IMG/VR virus record: IMGVR_UViG_3300032087_000550
Coordinates: 1-54,901 of that record
Strand: one strand, 5' to 3'
Origin: a virus
Lineage: Duplodnaviria > Caudoviricetes
Length of the DNA: 54,901 nt
Position 1 is the first letter of the stretch. The number at the start of each line of letters is the position of its first letter. The notes beneath the pieces are model-generated. The model was not told the origin of the DNA. It was given only the letters and a program-made list of their open reading frames with translations, and ran no database searches. Shown piece after piece: positions 45,575 through 54,901 of the stretch. Made by a program: the position numbers and the translations under genes.

Positions 45575-45604
45575 ATTATACTGTCAGGACTTCTTCCAAG
45601 TCAA
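45575..45604 (-). promoter_or_regulatory. Sigma70-type promoter at the polymerase 3' end, driving SSB onward
   Basis: TTGACT, 18 nt, TATAAT. Confidence 0.6.
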
Positions 45605-47123
45605 GCCAGTTTTTTCCCATTTTTAATTCTATTCCTACAGGCATGTCATAGCGGATGCCGTAGCGACGTTCCGTCTCCTGCGGTATGGCTAGCATACTTT
45701 TCGCCATGATCTCAATGCACTGCTTCTCTTCTCCCGGGAACACGTCCATAACAATCGAGTCGTGTACCGTGTTGCAAATCACGGACTGTAACCCACTGTC
45801 TTTCAACAGATTATGCAGCATCACAAGAGATAAGGGCAGCAGGTCTGCGGTGGCGAACCCCTGCACGGGATAGTTGCAGATAGCTGTCCGGTTCGTGGCG
45901 GTGCCCCATTCGGTCCAGCGGGTTCCCGGGAAACAATACTGTCGCCCGGATGGAAGCTTGATGTGGCTCTTGGTTACGGCGTCCCGCTGCAAGAGTTCGT
46001 GCCAGTCACTCACGCCGCTGTACTTCTGCTTAAAGGCACGGTAGTACCGCTTCTGATCTTCGGTGCCGCTCACGCCGCCGTAGAGGGGCTTGAAGGTGTG
46101 TGCCTTGGCCTCTTGGCGGGTACAGCCAATGATGCTGGCGGTATAGCTGTGAACGTCCGTGCCAGCCTCGACATCGTTGCGGATGCCCTCATCCTTTGCA
46201 AGGAACCCGGCAACCCGAAACTCTAGCTGTGCGTAGTCACCCTCAAGGATCGAACCACCCTCGAACCGGCTTTCGACAGCGCGGCGGATAATGAAGGTCG
46301 AGCCGCGTGGCATGTTCTGGAAGTTCGGGTTGCGGGACGACAGGCGACCGGTAGCTGTCACACACTGCATATATTCTGTGTGTATGAAGCCGTTCGGGTC
46401 CATGTTGTTTTCCATGCCCTCGACAAAGGATCGCAGGTAGGTTCGCACAGCAGAGTAACGAACGTACGCCTCGGCAAACTCCCGGGCGTCACCCCGCAGG
46501 TCTGTCATCATTTCTTCGAGCGTTGTCTTGTCAGTCTTGAAACCGCCCGCAGCCGTATCGAATGTGTCGCGGGGAACGAGCTTGAACCCGGCAACCTCTC
46601 CAGTACTATGGTAGCGGACGCCAGAGCCGCCACAGGTCTTGCAGATACGCACGGCCTTACCGGGGGTGCCATCCTTGCGTGGCGGAGTGTAGCGGCCCTT
46701 ACCAGAGCAGTCCGGGCACTGTTCACCGATAGTCTTGTGCAAGATTGTGGTCTCATTGAGGATGTGCCGCTTGAACTCGCCCTTTGCCATGCGGGTTCGC
46801 TGCTTGGGCTTCTTGGTTGCGCCGCGAACCTCATGACCGAGATTGAAGATAGCAGCCCACCGCTTCTTGTCCTTGATCGCACAGGAGTAAAACAGGCGGG
46901 AGCGGTCATCTGGACTGTCGAGGTTGACCGGTGTGTCTCCCATCGCGTTCGCGGCAAGTTCCTGCAAGCGGCGTTCTAGGGTGAACAGTTCGTCCTCGTA
47001 CTCCTTGCGGATGTCGGCAAGGGTTGTCCGGTTGATCTTGATGCCGTTGCGTTCGATGTCCGCAAGAACGTCCGTGACTTCAAGCGACAGACGCAAAGTG
47101 GGCAAGAGAGCTTGGTTCTTCAT
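45576..47123 (-). CDS. polA: Family A DNA polymerase, polymerase domain with DnaJ-type Zn-finger insert
   Basis: TATGRLSS, motif A DYAQLEFR, motif B RQEAKAHTFKPLYG (Phe at the 762-equivalent position), motif C VHDS; CPDCSGKG and CKTCGGSG; own GAGGA SD. Confidence 0.92.
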   Translation of the reverse strand: MKNQALLPTLRLSLEVTDVLADIERNGIKINRTTLADIRKEYEDELFTLERRLQELAANAMGDTPVNLDSPDDRSRLFYSCAIKDKKRWAAIFNLGHEVRGATKKPKQRTRMAKGEFKRHILNETTILHKTIGEQCPDCSGKGRYTPPRKDGTPGKAVRICKTCGGSGVRYHSTGEVAGFKLVPRDTFDTAAGGFKTDKTTLEEMMTDLRGDAREFAEAYVRYSAVRTYLRSFVEGMENNMDPNGFIHTEYMQCVTATGRLSSRNPNFQNMPRGSTFIIRRAVESRFEGGSILEGDYAQLEFRVAGFLAKDEGIRNDVEAGTDVHSYTASIIGCTRQEAKAHTFKPLYGGVSGTEDQKRYYRAFKQKYSGVSDWHELLQRDAVTKSHIKLPSGRQYCFPGTRWTEWGTATNRTAICNYPVQGFATADLLPLSLVMLHNLLKDSGLQSVICNTVHDSIVMDVFPGEEKQCIEIMAKSMLAIPQETERRYGIRYDMPVGIELKMGKNWLDLEEVLTV

Positions 47124-47664
47124 TGAATAGTTCCTCAAATGTGGTGCCAAAGGCTTCGAGTTGTGCAAGTGCTACTTGCTCGGTTGCAAGGACATCAGCC
47201 TTGCCATATGTTTCAATTATATGCCAAGGAATGTCATAAAACGTCTTACCTTCCTTGAAATACGGCGCGACAAGGTCTGCTTCCTTTTGCACTCCACTAT
47301 ACTTCTCTGCAAGAGCAGCAAGTCCCAGAGGCCAACGACGCGCCCGCGCCAGTATATATTCCGCAACCATCGTGTCATAGATATGTCCCTCGTATGTGAA
47401 TCCACAATCGCGAATCCAAGATAGATCGAACTTGATGTTTTGTCCAACGATAACGTCGGCGTGGTTCAAGGCAGCTTGAAATTTTGTGAACGCTCCCTCT
47501 GTGGGTGGCTCGGTTGAGTGGTAGTAGCAGTCGTAATCAACGGTGCTGTTGAGCCACTTGTAACCAATCGACACGAGCGAGTTGCCAAAGTACGGCAACG
47601 GTGTGGACGAGCCGTTCGCCTTCTCACGGTGTGTGGTTTCGATGTCAAAGGTCAAGACGTTCAT
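47080..47664 (-). CDS. Stand-alone 3'-5' proofreading exonuclease (DEDDy) of the split PolA
   Basis: ExoI DIETT, ExoII GQNIKFD, ExoIII YGKAD. Confidence 0.88.
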   Translation of the reverse strand: MNVLTFDIETTHREKANGSSTPLPYFGNSLVSIGYKWLNSTVDYDCYYHSTEPPTEGAFTKFQAALNHADVIVGQNIKFDLSWIRDCGFTYEGHIYDTMVAEYILARARRWPLGLAALAEKYSGVQKEADLVAPYFKEGKTFYDIPWHIIETYGKADVLATEQVALAQLEAFGTTFEELFNEEPSSLAHFASVA

Positions 47665-48902: not shown

Positions 48903-49668
48903 CGGCTGTCATTTCCTTCACATCTTTATCTAAGATAACTAAGCTGGTAGGCCGGATGGCCTGTAACCTGCGAACCAACCCTAATGCCTTCTTTGTGGCG
49001 TCCTTGTCAAGAGCCACGACGAGACGATCATAGGTTCGCAGCGTCGGTATGTACGAGTCTACAAGACTGGTTCCGAGCAAGGCTATGCCCGAAAGAATAT
49101 CAGAAACACTGCAAGCACTAGCACAATCTTCCAGAAGAACACCGATACGTCCGCTGCCGCAAACGAAAGGATGACCTGACTTTCCATATCTCCACCATTT
49201 TGGTTTGACATTTTTGTCCAAGGCTCGGCCCGCCGCATCGACGATCCGGTTGTTGTGACGAACTAGATAGACGACCCGCTTCGACCGGAAGTCGTACCGG
49301 ATGTCGGCCAAGCCGTTGCGATACGCCTCGTAAGCATTGACCCGGCGCACATAGGATTCGGCATCGGGTTCGCGGGACAACGAGACGAACGTGTCTGGCA
49401 ACTCGAACCCCCCCTCATAAGTGTCGGGTCTTGGGTTCGCGGGCTTGACCTTGGCCAACAGGGGATGGTATGGAGTGTCCTTGCGGATGCGAAACCCGGT
49501 GCGGCCCTTCACATCGCAGTCGGCGTGGAAGCAGTACCAGAGGCGTTCGCCATTCACCTCGGACACGCTGAACGTGTTCTTGTGTGAACAGGCAGGGCAA
49601 TCCATCCGCAAGCTTCCGGAGCCGCCGATTGGCAAATCTTCAACGAAGTCTTTGATCCAGTCAGTCAT
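48865..49668 (-). CDS. DNA primase (Zn finger plus TOPRIM)
   Basis: CPAC...CFHADC; EDCASA...GTSL...ALDKDA. Confidence 0.9.
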   Translation of the reverse strand: MTDWIKDFVEDLPIGGSGSLRMDCPACSHKNTFSVSEVNGERLWYCFHADCDVKGRTGFRIRKDTPYHPLLAKVKPANPRPDTYEGGFELPDTFVSLSREPDAESYVRRVNAYEAYRNGLADIRYDFRSKRVVYLVRHNNRIVDAAGRALDKNVKPKWWRYGKSGHPFVCGSGRIGVLLEDCASACSVSDILSGIALLGTSLVDSYIPTLRTYDRLVVALDKDATKKALGLVRRLQAIRPTSLVILDKDVKEMTADERKRTFDKYIT

Positions 49669-49675
49669 GGGTTCG

Positions 49676-49749
49676 GAGATACAGCATATCGGAAACTCGG
49701 TCAAGACAAAAAAAAATCGCTTGACAGGTTCGCGGCTACAGATTACTCT
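49676..49749. promoter_or_regulatory. Back-to-back divergent sigma70 promoters sharing an A-tract
   Basis: - strand: TTGACC (49704-49699), 17 nt, TATCTC; + strand: TTGACA (49721), 17 nt, TACTCT. Confidence 0.75.
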
Positions 49750-49783
49750 CTAGTTACAATATACCCCTATAGGTTTACCTGTT

Positions 49784-49924
49784 ATGAATAAAATCAATAG
49801 AATAAACCCTATAGCTAAACAGCTACCTAAACTGGGTAAAAGAATTGTTCCGAATAAAAAACGGACAAAAGAAGACAAACGAATGACAAAAGAGGTACGG
49901 GATGCCAAGACCGCCAAAGATTGA
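49784..49924 (+). CDS. Small basic protein (46 aa; not in ORF track)
   Basis: MNKINRINPIAKQL...RIVPNKK, first ORF after the promoter. Confidence 0.5.
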   Translation: MNKINRINPIAKQLPKLGKRIVPNKKRTKEDKRMTKEVRDAKTAKD

Positions 49925-50117
49925 TGAACCGACAAAAACCTACAACCTGTTGATGACAAAAGCTCAGTATGACAAGCTGGCAACCTATTCTGAATCTATG
50001 CAAAAAAGAAGCTTGGAACAGGTGGCGGTTGCTGACTTGATACGAGATGCCATCGATATCTACTTGGAGATTTTAGATGAGGAAGCTGAAGCTGTTCAAG
50101 GATCGGAGGGGCAATGA
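49902..50117 (+). CDS. Ribbon-helix-helix (CopG/Arc-like) regulator
   Basis: KTYNLLM beta strand, helix A (KAQYDKL), helix B (VADLIRDAIDIYL); GAGGT SD. Confidence 0.7.
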   Translation: MPRPPKIDEPTKTYNLLMTKAQYDKLATYSESMQKRSLEQVAVADLIRDAIDIYLEILDEEAEAVQGSEGQ

Positions 50118-50349
50118 CCTCGTTCCGTACATCGTATCGAAAGATAACCGGCACGAAGTCGTCGCTCCGGTTTCATCCGTCCGGATCGGAGAGACAAATC
50201 GAGACGCTATCAAATCAAAGCACTGCGTCGATTACCCGCGATGGGTTGCCCTGTACGTCGGAAAAAATCACACCGAGTGTTCGAAGTGGCTTGACAAGTA
50301 CAAAACGTCCGTGCTAAAGCTTTGCATACCCTATGAGGTATCCTCGTAG
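50077..50349 (+). CDS. Hypothetical protein
   Basis: GGAG SD; overlaps the RHH gene. Confidence 0.6.
   Translation: MRKLKLFKDRRGNDLVPYIVSKDNRHEVVAPVSSVRIGETNRDAIKSKHCVDYPRWVALYVGKNHTECSKWLDKYKTSVLKLCIPYEVSS
50291..50320 (+). promoter_or_regulatory. Sigma70-type promoter for the sRNA
   Basis: TTGACA ... TGCTAAAGC. Confidence 0.6.
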
Positions 50350-50429
50350 GGGACATGGTTTCTCCTATGCCGTGTTGCTAAAAAACTTTGAGTGGGGCTG
50401 GTCTACGGGCTGGCCCCTCTTTTTTTTTT
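50327..50429 (+). ncRNA. Candidate ~100-nt trans-acting antisense sRNA
   Basis: 5' 10-bp hairpin (50329-50351), single-stranded seed TTTCTCCTATG, 3' terminator. Confidence 0.65.
50394..50429 (+). terminator. Rho-independent terminator with UNCG loop
   Basis: GGGGCTGGTC-TACG-GGCTGGCCCC followed by a T10 run. Confidence 0.85.
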
Positions 50430-50495
50430 GCTTGACGCACCATTTTATTATCTGTATCGATAAAGCATCGAAACGCCAGCAATGGAGATTGGCAC

Positions 50496-50738
50496 ATGGA
50501 AATTTCGAACGATCAACGATCTGACTTGCTCCGCATACACAACAAACTGCGTGACGTTATCAACTATGTAGATGACTGTCGTGATCTCAGTTTGTGTCAC
50601 CTACGGGATATCGAAGAGGCTATCTGCGTTCTTCATCAGGTGGGTGATTTCAAGCCGAAGAAGCGATATGATGGCAGCAGTGTGTGGTGGACTGAATGGG
50701 TGTTTTCTGAGGAGGTGCCGAGCGATGCGGACGATTGA
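50496..50738 (+). CDS. Hypothetical early protein
   Basis: GGAG SD; candidate promoter TTGACG at 50432. Confidence 0.65.
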   Translation: MEISNDQRSDLLRIHNKLRDVINYVDDCRDLSLCHLRDIEEAICVLHQVGDFKPKKRYDGSSVWWTEWVFSEEVPSDADD

Positions 50739-51060
50739 GAACCACGTCGAACGGTGCCACTGCTGGGAATGCGGCGGCTACGGCAAGAAGGAGTACGAAC
50801 AGGCTGTCCCGGACCCGATCCGGGGCGGCGACCTTGTCGGTGTCATGGGTGAGTGCGATGGCTGCGAGGGTAACGGCGAACTGTTACGCGCAAAGATAAC
50901 GCAGACAACGGTGATCCGTGCCTTCCTCACACAGGCGAAACACGCACTCGAAGACATCGAACTGCTTGACACAGACCTCGACGCCATCTATGGCAAAATA
51001 GATGACGCAATCGGTGACATCGAACGCTACGAACGAAAGGTAGGTACACGCGATGGGTAA
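50725..51060 (+). CDS. DnaJ-type Zn-finger protein
   Basis: CWECGGYG and CDGCEGNG; GGAGG SD. Confidence 0.75.
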   Translation: MRTIENHVERCHCWECGGYGKKEYEQAVPDPIRGGDLVGVMGECDGCEGNGELLRAKITQTTVIRAFLTQAKHALEDIELLDTDLDAIYGKIDDAIGDIERYERKVGTRDG

Positions 51061-51226
51061 AGTCAAAGACTGGGTAATCGAAATGGAAGAGGACGCATCG
51101 TACATGACGCGCCAAGAATTCGTTGACAAGCACGGCGAAACGGTTATCGAATTGTACGACGAACTTCAACTGAAATGGCAGTACGATCATGCAGAACCAC
51201 CCGAACCGGATTTCGATGCTGACTGA
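51053..51226 (+). CDS. Small acidic protein (57 aa; not in ORF track)
   Basis: MGKVKDWVIEMEEDA...; overlapping start and stop with neighbours. Confidence 0.65.
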   Translation: MGKVKDWVIEMEEDASYMTRQEFVDKHGETVIELYDELQLKWQYDHAEPPEPDFDAD

Positions 51227-51398
51227 ACCGGAGGACGATCCGCGTCTGGAAAGTGTGGCTGACAAATTGGCCACGCTTCGAAGACAAATCGATGACGCCG
51301 ACTGGCATGGCAAGCCGGTGACAAACGCGCAACGCCAAAGGGCAAGGCGGCTGACAAATCTTCTACACAATGGAATCTTGTGGGAGCCGACGTTTTGA
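51216..51398 (+). CDS. Hypothetical protein
   Basis: MLTEPEDD...DDADWHG...WEPTF. Confidence 0.55.
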   Translation: MLTEPEDDPRLESVADKLATLRRQIDDADWHGKPVTNAQRQRARRLTNLLHNGILWEPTF

Positions 51399-51598
51399 CG
51401 CTGACAAATGACAAACGCCAGACGCTGACAAAAACCAGACGAGACAAACCGACCACGCTTTCCCGCGAACACGTCTGCGATAATTGCGGCGAACCCGCCA
51501 TGACCAAGGAAGGGGACCGGCTCCGCTGTCCGTCGTGCTGGCTCCGGGAACAGGGCCGGAAAATAAAACCGCTTGACCACAGAGGATATCGCCCGTAA
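51380..51598 (+). CDS. Small Zn-ribbon protein (start uncertain)
   Basis: CDNC...CPSC. Confidence 0.55.
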   Translation: MGADVLTLTNDKRQTLTKTRRDKPTTLSREHVCDNCGEPAMTKEGDRLRCPSCWLREQGRKIKPLDHRGYRP

Positions 51599-51601
51599 CG
51601 T
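51573..51601 (+). promoter_or_regulatory. Sigma70-type promoter
   Basis: TTGACC, 17 nt, TAACGT. Confidence 0.55.
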
Positions 51602-51636
51602 GTTCCCATCGTTTTCTAACGAAGGGAAATAACGAC

Positions 51637-52254
51637 ATGGCAAAACAAGCCACACTATTTGATCATGAGTGCATGATCCACAACATCATCGCGGTTTACC
51701 GTGACGCCGACGCGGTACAGTATAACGAAGGCTTGGCATGGTATTCGGACGCACAAAAGGCGGCGCACGATATCGCGGTAAAATATGACATTGCCGTTTA
51801 TATTGTGGCTGCTGTCATCGCCGCGCTTTCACCCAATAACAAATGGTCCCGGAACGTGACAAACGCCGACGCATTGATCGGCGCGTTTATTCGGGGCGAC
51901 GGTATCGATTCCGTGAAAGTCTCGACCTACAACAAGATGAAGGCGAAAGCTTGGGACATTTTGGCGGCGCGTCCGGACTATGACGGCGCAAAAAAGATGC
52001 TTAAGGGACAAAAGATCACGTCCTTTTTTATGGACATTATGGGCGAGTTTAACGTCACGATTGACGGCCACGCCCGGAATATCGCTTACAATGAAAGAGT
52101 CGGATTGACCGACGACCGGACAAATATCGGCGTCCGTGAATACCGCGCACTTCAAGCCGCTTACGAAGAGGCGGCGCGACGTGTTGGCCTCATGCCCTAC
52201 CAGCTACAGGCGATCACTTGGCGCGTCTGGCGGGACCGGCACGGCATAACCTGA
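51637..52254 (+). CDS. HhH-GPD / DNA-glycosylase-fold-like protein
   Basis: GLAWY...AALSP...W..N...KITSF...VTIDGHA...LQAITW. Confidence 0.55.
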   Translation: MAKQATLFDHECMIHNIIAVYRDADAVQYNEGLAWYSDAQKAAHDIAVKYDIAVYIVAAVIAALSPNNKWSRNVTNADALIGAFIRGDGIDSVKVSTYNKMKAKAWDILAARPDYDGAKKMLKGQKITSFFMDIMGEFNVTIDGHARNIAYNERVGLTDDRTNIGVREYRALQAAYEEAARRVGLMPYQLQAITWRVWRDRHGIT

Positions 52255-52399
52255 CAAATCAGCCACGCTAAAAGATGACAAAAATGCCACGCTAAAAAAA
52301 TTGGAGCCAGTTTGCGCTATCGGGTTGCCGGGTCACTGGGGGACTGGGCGCGGGGCTGGCATCGGTTGCCGCGAGTCGCGGGGCGGCAATCACCGGGGG

Positions 52400-52436
52400 C
52401 GGGGCTGGCCAGCGGGCCGGTCCCGTTTCTTTTTTT
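52400..52436 (+). terminator. Rho-independent terminator
   Basis: CGGGGCTGGCC-agcg-GGCCGGTCCCG followed by TTTCTTTTTTT. Confidence 0.8.
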
Positions 52437-52516
52437 ACTTGCCTATGAATCTGGCCGGTGCCATGATTCGGGACCGGTCGGGATTGTCCCGGCCCGGCAA
52501 CCATAGGAGAAAAGCA

Positions 52517-53560
52517 GTGTTAGACATTGTGACGAGAACACCAAAAGCGATCGAGAATTGTAAAGCCCGGGGCGGCGACATCTGGTCAACCCATCATGAT
52601 ATTGGGGATTTCAGCCTATACGAGCGGTTTGCCAACTTTAAGAAAATCCCGATCGAAGCCTTAACCAGCAAGCCGGACCTGACGCCGTCCGGTGAGGTGA
52701 TCCGTGAAATAGTCACGCCGCAGCGCATGGAAAACTTTTCCGCCCTGCAAAATGTGGCGACCGGAAACGTGATCGACGTAACACCCTTTAAGGGTTCCTA
52801 TACTTTCAAGCCGCATCTTGAGGCCATGAAAGAACAGGCCGGGGTTGTCGAGCGGTCCCCGCTGCCGACTGGCAACGTCGAGGTGATCGACCGGATATTT
52901 GACGAGGGGGTGCGGGTTCACCGAACTATTTACTTTCACGAAATGACCCACGCCCTCGGCTACACCAAGAACGGTGAGGGTGACACGGTCCGCTGCCGGT
53001 TGGACATCTTCAACAGCGTCGATAAATCTTGGTCGCTTCAAGTATTTTCTGGTGCTTACCGCGACCTGTGCCGGAACACTTTGGTTTTTGGTGGTGAGAA
53101 GGCGTATCACACAAAGCAGAAACACACTGGCACCATGTCGAACGAAGCCGCGAACCAGAAGGCGGTCCTCGGCCTAGAAATGTGGGCGAACCAGTCCGAG
53201 CAGATGAAACTGTGGCGACAGGCTGAAATGACCAACCGCCAGTTTGCAGACGTGATCAAGCCGTTTTGCCGGAAGAACACCAAAGGCGCGGAACTCGAGG
53301 ACTCGATCTCGATCAACGAGCGGAAATTTAATTATCTGCTGGAGAGGTTCACCGAAGAAAAACGCGAACTGGGGGGAACCATGTGGGCCGCTTACAATGC
53401 CCTGACCCATTGGGCGACCCATCTGCCGGACGCGTACGAAAAAGGCCGGGCTGAAAAGAAACGGTTTGATCGGAACAATGAGGTCCGGCAGATCATCACC
53501 GGTCCGGATTGGCTCTATTTCGAGGGGCTGGCCGGACGTAAAGAAATGGCGGTGCAATAG
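52517..53560 (+). CDS. DUF932-family (TIGR03299-like) protein
   Basis: FNSVDKS.....GAYRDLCRN....KH T; GTMWAAYNALTHWATH; GTG start after ATAGGAG. Confidence 0.75.
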   Translation: MLDIVTRTPKAIENCKARGGDIWSTHHDIGDFSLYERFANFKKIPIEALTSKPDLTPSGEVIREIVTPQRMENFSALQNVATGNVIDVTPFKGSYTFKPHLEAMKEQAGVVERSPLPTGNVEVIDRIFDEGVRVHRTIYFHEMTHALGYTKNGEGDTVRCRLDIFNSVDKSWSLQVFSGAYRDLCRNTLVFGGEKAYHTKQKHTGTMSNEAANQKAVLGLEMWANQSEQMKLWRQAEMTNRQFADVIKPFCRKNTKGAELEDSISINERKFNYLLERFTEEKRELGGTMWAAYNALTHWATHLPDAYEKGRAEKKRFDRNNEVRQIITGPDWLYFEGLAGRKEMAVQ

Positions 53561-53640
53561 TGGAAGCTTTGTACGTCATCTATAGGACGATCACGGTTGT
53601 CCTGTTTTGCCTGATCATCTGGGCAATTTTCATTGGCTAA
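53560..53640 (+). CDS. 26-aa single-TM peptide (not in ORF track)
   Basis: MEALYVIYRTITVVLFCLIIWAIFIG; GTG overlaps the upstream TAG and exactly fills the gap. Confidence 0.55.
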   Translation: MEALYVIYRTITVVLFCLIIWAIFIG

Positions 53641-53659
53641 CACATAGGAGAAAAAAGCC

Positions 53660-54205
53660 ATGTCTAAGAACGCAAACGACATCACCAAGACCATCCCCGC
53701 AGCCCTTGCAACCAAGATCGGGAACCTGACCGACATTATGTCCGCCTGTTACGACAGCGGGTTCGAGGATGGGTTCCGGGATGGCAAACGCGAGGGATCG
53801 CAGCAGGAAGCAGAGAAGCGCCGCAACTTGGCGGAAGCTTGGAACGATCACGGCCAGCCGCTTGTTACTGGCATCAAGAACGCGATCGATCAAACCGACT
53901 TGCACGGTGAGCCGCTGCACGAATCCGGCCAGCAGCCGGTCCCGGCAACCCGCAAGCCCTACCGTGAGAAACTCAACCGGGGCCACGAGCGGGTTCGCAA
54001 GCTTCTCGACACGTCCAGCTATACAGCCGCGCCGACCTTGGCGGGGTTGCTTGGCTACTCCCGCGCCACCGTCCGGACCTACATGCGAGACCTGATGGCG
54101 CATGGTGTCGAGATCGAGACCAAGGCGTTGAAAGGTGGGTATCGCGGAAGCGGTCGGGGCCGTACTGGCTACCGTGTTGGCTACCGGCTTGCCAAGACCG
54201 GCTAA
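53660..54205 (+). CDS. Winged-HTH DNA-binding protein
   Basis: TLAGLLGYSRATVRTYMRDL..HGVEIET...GYRL (BirA-N-like wHTH); ATAGGAG SD. Confidence 0.7.
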   Translation: MSKNANDITKTIPAALATKIGNLTDIMSACYDSGFEDGFRDGKREGSQQEAEKRRNLAEAWNDHGQPLVTGIKNAIDQTDLHGEPLHESGQQPVPATRKPYREKLNRGHERVRKLLDTSSYTAAPTLAGLLGYSRATVRTYMRDLMAHGVEIETKALKGGYRGSGRGRTGYRVGYRLAKTG

Positions 54206-54266
54206 CCTGTGCTTAAACTATGGGGCGGGCGCTGTTGCCCGCCTCAACCAACTGGAGATTTAACCG

Positions 54267-54470
54267 ATGAAGCTTTCAATCCATGCCCATGCTAAAGACG
54301 TCTATAACGAGTCTCTGAAGGGGAATGCGGAAGTGATTTTGCATACCAACATTCACGACACATTCAAGACCGTCAAGCTTACCGGCACTGACCAGTATGG
54401 CCACCCGATCGATGTGATCGTTTACATGGACAAGAAACAGCCTTTGAAACGCACAAAGCGCATCGTCTAG
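54267..54470 (+). CDS. Hypothetical protein
   Basis: GGAG SD; last early ORF. Confidence 0.65.
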   Translation: MKLSIHAHAKDVYNESLKGNAEVILHTNIHDTFKTVKLTGTDQYGHPIDVIVYMDKKQPLKRTKRIV

Positions 54471-54526
54471 CCGCGAACCCATACCCTTCCCGGCGGGGCT
54501 AATAGCCGGGTTCCTCCCTTAACCTT

Positions 54527-54558
54527 GCCCCCGGCCTTTGCGCTGGGGGTTCTTTTTT
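54527..54558 (+). terminator. Rho-independent terminator ending the early operon
   Basis: GCCCCCGGC-ctttgc-GCTGGGGGT followed by TCTTTTTT. Confidence 0.75.
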
Positions 54559-54810
54559 GTGGCCCGTCGTGTTTATTGCCGGACGGGCTTTGTATTCCTT
54601 GGGGAAATCGGCGGGAACTTGTGCCGGGGATTGTTACTATATCCGAGCGGGGCGGGGCCATCTCAAGTTATCCGGCATGACAAATCACAGACGCGGGTGT
54701 GCGCGGGCGGGCTTACATGTAGGTTGCCGGGGTGGTTGCCGGGGTTGGCGACCGGCCAGAATCCTGCCGATCCGACGACATCACCGATGGAAAACAAAAA
54801 ATTCTCTACG

Positions 54811-54901
54811 CGCACCCGTACGCAAGGGCCATGGGGGTCCCCCGGCATTTGCTATGCAATCTCGACATATTTTTTGTAGTTTTAGGTTATCCATACGGTA
54901 T
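54811..54901. repeat. Terminal direct repeat, right copy
   Basis: Identical to 1-91. Confidence 0.95.

Follow-up and report, generated by a model that had tools for sequence, protein, structure and literature searches.

A candidate anti-Shine–Dalgarno regulatory RNA overlapping the end of a protein-coding gene in an uncultured HMO-2011-type marine podophage

The segment 50326-50429 in the early arm of an uncultured marine podophage of the HMO-2011 type probably encodes a regulatory RNA of about 100 nt. We consider it likely that this RNA represents a new family of phage anti-Shine–Dalgarno (anti-SD) regulatory RNAs that works like the c4 RNA of phage P1 without being a member of the c4 family. 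The decisive evidence is the covariation, in related phages, of the seed of the RNA with the ribosome-binding site (RBS) that it would cover, which appears to point to a working translational switch. The anti-SD type is a functional class, not a homology family, distinguished by an accessible seed complementary to a start region at another locus; here, the seed is predicted to be accessible with P of at least 0.92 and has two 11-nt RBS matches. Unusual features are the location of the putative promoter and the 5' hairpin in a coding end, several targets in the early arm, and rapid co-diversification of seeds and targets.

The stretch of DNA analysed (the window, 54.9 kb) comprises a whole virus record, has direct terminal repeats, and comes from a podophage of the HMO-2011 type. 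Structural genes occupy the + strand up to ~38.6 kb, replication genes the - strand up to 49704, and small + strand genes form an arm from 49902 to the window end. In tblastn searches covering 96–99% of the protein, the DNA polymerase of the window shows 47% identity to that of Pelagibacter phage HTVC033P, 40% to Roseobacter phage CRP-1, and 39% to HMO-2011; by this kinship, the phage belongs to the HMO-2011-type group. Judged from sequence comparison, its host is probably an alphaproteobacterium. The polymerase gene (45576-47168, - strand) holds a CxxCxGxG-type zinc-finger insert (CPDCSGKG...CKTCGGSG), which we take to be the DnaJ-like insert typical of HMO-2011-type phages. Neither an integrase nor a recombinase is found among the ten replication-arm ORFs scanned, and the phage is apparently lytic. 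A 2022 ISME J article (PMC9038755) calls HMO-2011-type phages a dominant marine viral group and describes their subgroups IV–X as devoid of lysogeny genes; a term search of its main text finds none of sRNA, non-coding, promoter, terminator, or DUF932. A literature search found no paper joining "HMO-2011" and "small RNA". The module is present in no cultured phage of the collection searched, which gave no match in a DNA search with 49700-52600 or in protein searches with the DUF932 protein and with p90, the product of the 90-aa gene described below. A p90 profile search of species-representative bacterial genomes finds no relative either, and thus gives no clue to a host or a prophage.

The elements of the proposed RNA, its surroundings, and its candidate targets are the following.

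50077-50349, + strand: p90, a 90-aa gene of no family, with 55 viral-contig relatives (52–93% identity, full length)
50291-50296, + strand: -35 hexamer TTGACA, in p90 codons Leu72-Asp73-Lys74
50312-50320, + strand: putative extended -10 element TGcTAAAGC, 15 nt past the -35 hexamer
50326-50429, + strand: proposed RNA, ~102–104 nt, with its putative start at A50326 or A50328
50329-50351, + strand: hairpin 1, 10 bp with loop UAU, CCCUAUGAGG / UAU / CCUCGUAGGG
50352-50376, + strand: predicted hairpin 2, a weak 8-bp stem with three G-U pairs, GACAUGGU / GCCGUGUU
50359-50369, + strand: seed, TTTCTCCTATG as DNA and UUUCUCCUAUG as RNA, adjoined by the GACATGG block at 50352-50358
50394-50429, + strand: intrinsic terminator, a 10-bp stem (50394-50417) with a UACG loop, and T10 (50420-50429)
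50432-50460, + strand: next promoter, TTGACG-N17-TATCGA, straight after the terminator, driving an 80-aa gene at 50496
52439-52467, + strand: promoter of the DUF932 unit, TTGCCT-N17-CATGAT, with a leader of ~43 nt, preceded by a terminator at 52395-52430
52502-52519, + strand: target 1, CAUAGGAGAAA and the GTG start of the DUF932 gene (52517-53560)
53643-53664, + strand: target 2, CAUAGGAGAAA, an AAAG bulge, and CCAUGUC, at the start of the HTH_11 gene (53660-54205)

The segment 50326-50429 folds with -47.9 kcal/mol (z = -5.6; none of 200 shuffles is equal), and its equivalents in relatives free of inserts measure 78–116 nt. In the sequences compared, hairpin 1 is backed by compensatory changes: at least 7 of 8 pairs are kept in 28 of the 32 distinct sequences, and position 3, the third position of a Pro codon, is occupied by C-G in 7, G-C in 8, U-A in 4, G-U in 6, and U-G in 2 of them. 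The predicted hairpin 2 exposes the anti-SD sequence UUCUCCUAU as its 9-nt loop, with a predicted unpaired probability of 0.92–1.00 for positions 50360-50368. The preliminary description located the hairpin, the GACATGG block, the seed, and the UNCG terminator with its T10 correctly throughout; of its "unpaired seed", the accessibility (P of at least 0.92) stands, but the seed is not simply single-stranded, being the loop of predicted hairpin 2. An Rfam search with 50326-50429 at E <= 10 gives only a chance-level L20_leader hit (18 bits, E 6.5).

A terminator follows p90 in 52 of the 55 relatives, 25–240 nt past the stop codon; of the remaining three loci, one is cut off and two have no terminator within 420 nt. 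The stems at 50394-50434 and 52401-52441 have sequence in common (GGGGCTGG...CTGGCCCC; 78% identical), and the same terminator words recur in relatives with only 52% p90 identity, a likeness that hints at a bound factor or at frequent recombination. Insertions are seen in the loop of hairpin 1, where about 100 nt are added, with the stem retained, in four relatives (L002:4251-4446, L023:4251-4463, L025:4251-4511, and L026:4245-4425); the inserts of L002 and L026 are alike, and a contig from an RNA library (X1) has the end of such an insert.

Comparison with the relatives indicates that p90 is a real, conserved gene, with an SSVRIGET motif and 18 residues invariant in 14 sequences. Hence, the last 20 codons of p90, being coding sequence, also hold the putative promoter and start site together with one side of hairpin 1, its 5' arm; the stop codon TAG (50347-50349) falls inside hairpin 1. 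Searches of Pfam and PHROG with p90 give no match. Its AF2 model (pLDDT 84) matches no fold in the PDB (best E 0.41), and Atlas shows no named neighbour, leaving a role of p90 as an RNA chaperone unsupported.

We infer that a promoter TTGACA-N15-TGnTAAAGC is buried in the end of p90, with a start near A50326 or A50328, because TTGAC, TGnTAAA, and ATA are frozen at synonymous sites. Among 46 distinct p90 coding sequences, the Leu72 codon is CTT in 44 of 44 and the Asp73 codon is GAC in 46 of 46, while other invariant Leu columns of p90 use four to five codons. Val79 is encoded by GTG in 40 of 44 sequences, Leu80 by CTA or TTA only (39 of 39), and Ile84, which supplies the ATA near the start site, by ATA in 40 of 43. 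Relatives with other residues at the -10 codons nonetheless read TGnTAAAAC or TATAAG. The -10 element is weak compared with the E. coli consensus, and a simple promoter scan did not report the embedded promoter. A + strand promoter at 50291 had been part of the preliminary description; the TTGACA is indeed at that position, but its location inside a conserved 90-aa gene had been overlooked. Other promoter-like sequences flank the locus: a site at 49774-49803 precedes the RHH gene upstream of p90, and TTGAC comes after the T-run in most relatives.

The 11-mer complement of the seed, CATAGGAGAAA, has exactly three exact matches in the window, at 50359-50369 (-), 52502-52512 (+), and 53643-53653 (+), and no further match at one mismatch; the expected count is 0.64, and three matches are reached in 1 of 100 shuffles. 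The site at 52502 ends 4 nt ahead of the GTG (52517) of the DUF932 gene, whose product matches Pfam PF06067 (E 7e-19), and the site at 53643 ends 6 nt ahead of the ATG (53660) of the HTH_11 protein (E 1e-5). At the HTH gene, CCATGTC (53658-53664) spans the ATG and pairs with GACAUGG after a 4-nt AAAG bulge, so that the seed and GACAUGG form a two-block match (11+7 nt) to the start region. Both observations, the exact complement at the two RBSs and the second block across the start codon, had been made before and are reproduced here in full. The two genes had also been called the first-expressed genes of the phage, which their position does not support: the DUF932 and HTH genes belong to the early arm's third transcription unit, which is preceded by two terminators and has its own promoter. 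At this promoter, relatives conserve TGCCATGATTC and, upstream of it, TTCAAC or TTGCCT. Since DUF932 stands behind a terminator and has its own promoter, the pairing would act in trans.

The 8-mer AGGAGAAA occurs five times in the window and only the two targets have it at an RBS; therefore, it is not the generic RBS of the phage. Both target RBSs are predicted to be open. A sliding duplex-energy scan of the whole genome does not discriminate, as many sites are equally stable and the targets are not singled out: the HTH site ranks 6th (5th without the antisense strand of the RNA itself) and DUF932 is outside the top 15. It was replaced by a ranking restricted to start regions, and here the proposed targets lead. 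The DUF932 start region is first of 53 crude start regions, a set that left out the HTH gene, with -24.5 kcal/mol (mean -13.5, sd 4.0), and the other regions of this set share at most 6 nt with the seed. Among 11 early start regions, the HTH gene is best with -27.4 kcal/mol, followed by DUF932 with -24.5, the others ranging from -9 to -20.

Covariation was analysed in 34 relatives and the window, all of which hold both the region following p90 and a DUF932 homologue. The stretch between the p90 stop codon and the terminator is nearly always CU-rich, and its sequence varies by lineage. There are at least nine different seeds, each matching the DUF932 RBS of its own phage, and in most of these phages the complementarity is exact; examples are given below.

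Window: seed UUUCUCCUAUG, DUF932 RBS CAUAGGAGAAA
L006 group: seed GCGGUUCCUUU, DUF932 RBS AAAGGAACCGC
L028: seed AGUUCCUUU, DUF932 RBS AAAGGAACU
L031: seed AUGUCCUUUU, DUF932 RBS AAAAGGACAU
L041: seed CCUUUCGUUGU, DUF932 RBS ACAACGAAAGG
L054: seed CUUUCGUUG, DUF932 RBS CAACGAAAG
L046: seed UAGUUCUCCUUU and GUUGUUGGUAG, a match of 12+11 nt, with RBS AAAGGAGAACUA and, eight bases upstream, CUACCAACAAC
L011: seed GUUUCUCCU, DUF932 RBS AGGAGAAAC in L011 and L021

The covariation that the preliminary description had looked to in relatives is thus present: seed and RBS have at least 9 nt in common in 21 of the 28 distinct pairs, and at least 7 nt in 26. For 13 lineage representatives, the mean match length is 9.4 nt in native pairs versus 6.8 nt in swapped ones (none of 100,000 permutations is as good). 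Duplex energies agree, with -27.2 for native and -22.7 for swapped pairs (none of 10,000 permutations is as good). As the loci are related to one another, these permutation figures overstate independence and are not true probabilities. Matches of at least 10 nt are complementary in 46 cases, 39 of them at start regions, and same-sense in 13 cases, with two at start regions.

Targets other than DUF932 are matched as well. The start region of the HTH gene is matched in six of the nine relatives carrying this gene, with 9–10 nt in L010, L011, L013, and L021, 8 nt in L012, and 11 nt, at +4 to +14, in L051. Further candidate targets are an 81–89-aa gene starting with MKKRIH (13 nt) and the DUF7178 gene in L013 (13 nt). 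Exceptions are L018 and L050, which share just 6 nt with their own DUF932 RBS, and L042–L045, with 7 nt; the seeds of L042 and L043 fit each other's targets better than their own. Pairing stops at the exact core, as Watson–Crick pairs in the 4-nt flanks (61 of 256) are at the chance level. Nor is there an excess of G-U pairs (35) over A-C pairs (34) in the flanks; hence, wobble pairs do not identify the RNA strand, and the antisense-strand energy control shows no consistent asymmetry. On this comparative evidence, seed–target pairing is kept through compensatory change.

In the mechanism that we propose, the host RNA polymerase would start at the sigma-70-type promoter within the last p90 codons, the upstream RHH–p90 mRNA would yield the same 3' end, and transcription would be ended by the UACG/T10 terminator. 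The resulting RNA would comprise the 5' hairpin, the CU-rich anti-SD seed held open in a loop, and the terminator hairpin. The seed would pair with the open ribosome-binding regions of the DUF932 mRNA and of the mRNA of the HTH regulator, whose genes belong to a transcription unit of their own farther downstream; with the RNA in place, 30S subunits would be kept from binding, so that less DUF932 and HTH protein would be made as the RNA builds up. In relatives, the same RNA would also cover one or two more early genes. Within this scheme, we infer three things: that the RNA is transcribed on its own, that it represses its targets instead of activating them, and what purpose this serves. A timer function and action on host mRNAs, both raised in the preliminary description, are conceivable additions.

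The serious rival differs in the origin of the regulator: the pairing would be the same, but there would be no separately started RNA, its place being taken by the 3' end of the RHH–p90 mRNA, possibly trimmed by an RNase, or by a read-through transcript folding in cis. We regard this as unlikely, though deserving of attention. The segment lies directly behind p90 and has the p90 terminator in common with it, a promoter-like site (49774-49803) stands ahead of the RHH gene, and the internal -10 element is weak and was missed by the promoter scan; on the other hand, an mRNA 3' end alone does not explain why TTGAC, TGn, TAAA, and ATA are frozen at synonymous positions. The RNA data come from four runs (X1–X4) of one seawater metatranscriptome study, in the form of Logan contigs (6–7% of sampled words). 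Contigs of relatives cover 50219-50347 and 50343-50496, contigs being by nature silent on ends, strand, and level; the latter contig bridges the terminator, in agreement with read-through from upstream. Folding in cis is made unlikely by the 2.1 kb between the seed and DUF932 and by the two strong terminators and the conserved promoter that separate them. Given its overlap with p90, the RNA may represent the 3' end of the RHH–p90 mRNA, either in addition to or in place of a separately started transcript.

The remaining explanations would do away with the regulatory RNA altogether. It is highly improbable that the 11-mer acts at the DNA level, as a protein-binding or recombination site, e.g., for the RHH or the HTH protein. 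Three copies within 3.3 kb, one of them inverted, regulator-like genes nearby, and the lack of an RNA-strand signal from wobble pairs would fit such a site. Yet in every lineage the repeat includes the SD sequence and sits at a start codon or immediately ahead of one; the copy following p90 is regularly the complementary one (at start regions, 39 complementary and 2 same-sense matches reach 10 nt or more); the sites are devoid of dyad symmetry; no recombinase is seen in the 10 replication-arm ORFs scanned; and the lengths and positions of the cores shift relative to the SD between lineages, as base pairing predicts. Still more improbable is an ordinary terminator with a 3' UTR, whose complementarity would be a by-product of CU-rich sequence meeting purine-rich RBSs. 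Any stretch containing CUCC matches SD cores, and the whole-genome duplex scan gave many equally strong matches elsewhere; but the matches reach 9–13 nt, beyond the 4–5 nt of an SD core, and vary by lineage along with the target, while other start regions of the window share at most 6 nt. The - strand could, finally, encode a small protein, with its RBS here and its ATG start at 50356, as AGGAGAAACCATG opens a frame at 50210-50356 (-), of 48 aa rather than the 28 aa given in the preliminary description. That this frame is a translated gene, the outcome named there as fatal to the RNA, is barely conceivable: an SD and a start opening at least 25 codons occur in only 4 of 33 distinct relatives and are absent from the closest one, L002; the ATG reads ACG in L011 and L021; and the frame is antisense to the conserved p90 gene.

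Our preferred reading, an anti-SD RNA acting in trans, can be compared with several known systems. By analogy, the nearest functional counterpart is c4, an RNA found in phages P1 and P7. The c4 RNA pairs through two loops, is encoded upstream in the operon of its target, and is processed from that transcript. Like c4, the proposed RNA belongs to a phage, bears a loop-borne complement to RBSs of the phage itself, and varies in specificity between relatives; the two-block pairing seen here (11+7 nt at the HTH gene, 12+11 nt in L046) recalls the two loops of c4. Unlike c4, it has no Rfam C4 match (E <= 10, 49000-54901), its targets are 2.1–3.3 kb away, beyond two terminators (50394-50429 and 52395-52430) and a promoter (52439-52467), it shares sequence with the 3' end of p90, a protein gene, and its phage is apparently lytic, the ORFs scanned including no integrase; moreover, it would act on genes for a DUF932 and an HTH protein rather than on icd/ant. 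According to the review PMC12197685, which also refers to Citron and Schuster, 1990, c4 blocks translation of the immI genes of its own phage by covering the RBS from its loops, and its specificity differs between P1 and P7, which is the basis of heteroimmunity.

The alphaproteobacterial anti-SD sRNAs MmgR/suhB (RF00519) and SorX (RF02784) have the same layout of a hairpin, a CU-rich single strand, and a terminator, and repress by covering RBSs, as proposed for the RNA described here, whose host is probably an alphaproteobacterium too; the AbcR and CcsR types are further examples of such sRNAs. In contrast to MmgR and SorX, the present RNA is phage-borne, would be aimed at phage mRNAs, and has no Rfam match for 50326-50429. 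Phage trans-acting base-pairing RNAs that tune both phage and host mRNAs are described, in the same review, for VP882 (VpdS) and lambda (PreS). Those belong to temperate enterobacterial or Vibrio phages, with Hfq dependence shown, whereas the RNA described here is known from comparison only; neither VpdS nor PreS appears in the Rfam scan output, and no sequence relation to them is found. sRNAs derived from 3' UTRs, of the CpxQ and SroC type, are usually released by RNase E. The proposed RNA resembles them in having its 3' end and terminator in common with the upstream mRNA and in overlapping the coding end, and differs in the internal promoter indicated by synonymous-site constraint.

Other elements are seen in the same arm. 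A second sRNA-like element (54476-54565, +) follows a 67-aa gene and consists of a hairpin CCCGGC...GCCGGG, the single-stranded UUCCUCCCUUAACCUU, and a terminator. It scores 32.4 bits with MmgR/suhB RF00519 (below the GA of 41; E 7.5e-5) and 27.5 bits with SorX RF02784 (below the GA of 46.6). As no complementary phage site beyond chance is found for it, it may mimic a host anti-SD sRNA; a motif search did not find it in relatives, few of whose loci extend that far. Between the DUF7178 gene and DUF932 lies a GC-rich conserved non-coding element (52295-52395, +), followed by the terminator at 52395-52430, with an invariant GGCGAG(A/T)CG...GGGGC loop in a variable stem and a long-range helix with compensatory changes (one pair is U-A in 9, C-G in 8, and U-G in 5 sequences). 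It has no Rfam match, is covered by several metatranscriptome contigs, and may be another structured RNA. The motif TGACAAA-N6-9-(C)ACGC(TAAAA) is repeated at 51259-51459, 52251-52301, and 54677-54694, partly within small genes and in tandem just ahead of the 52295-52395 element. A sigma-70 promoter would need wider spacing; the repeats may be operator or iteron sites.

The regulation of HMO-2011-type phages is essentially unstudied. If true, the proposed RNA, recognised purely from sequence, would regulate phage genes post-transcriptionally in ocean phages that are uncultured and apparently lytic, and the pairing is directly testable, since the relatives provide natural compensatory mutants. 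The RNA would also exemplify how the end of a protein-coding gene can accommodate a promoter, here a putative one, together with an RNA structure. DUF932, a protein of unknown function that is widespread in phages and plasmids, would emerge as one needing tight control of its dose.

The co-diversification of seeds and targets leaves room for exclusion groups among competing phages. As a tentative and rather doubtful extension, the seed may serve as an address label, the RNA silencing DUF932 and HTH genes of co-infecting or superinfecting relatives with the same RBS label; seeds and RBS flanks would therefore diversify together, in a form of RNA-based exclusion, or heteroimmunity, in ocean phages that are very abundant and obligately lytic. 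If so, the same RNA would also set the window of DUF932 expression in the phage's own cycle, and an arms race would have left its traces in the changing set of additional targets and in the mismatches that look recombinant (L050, L042/L043).
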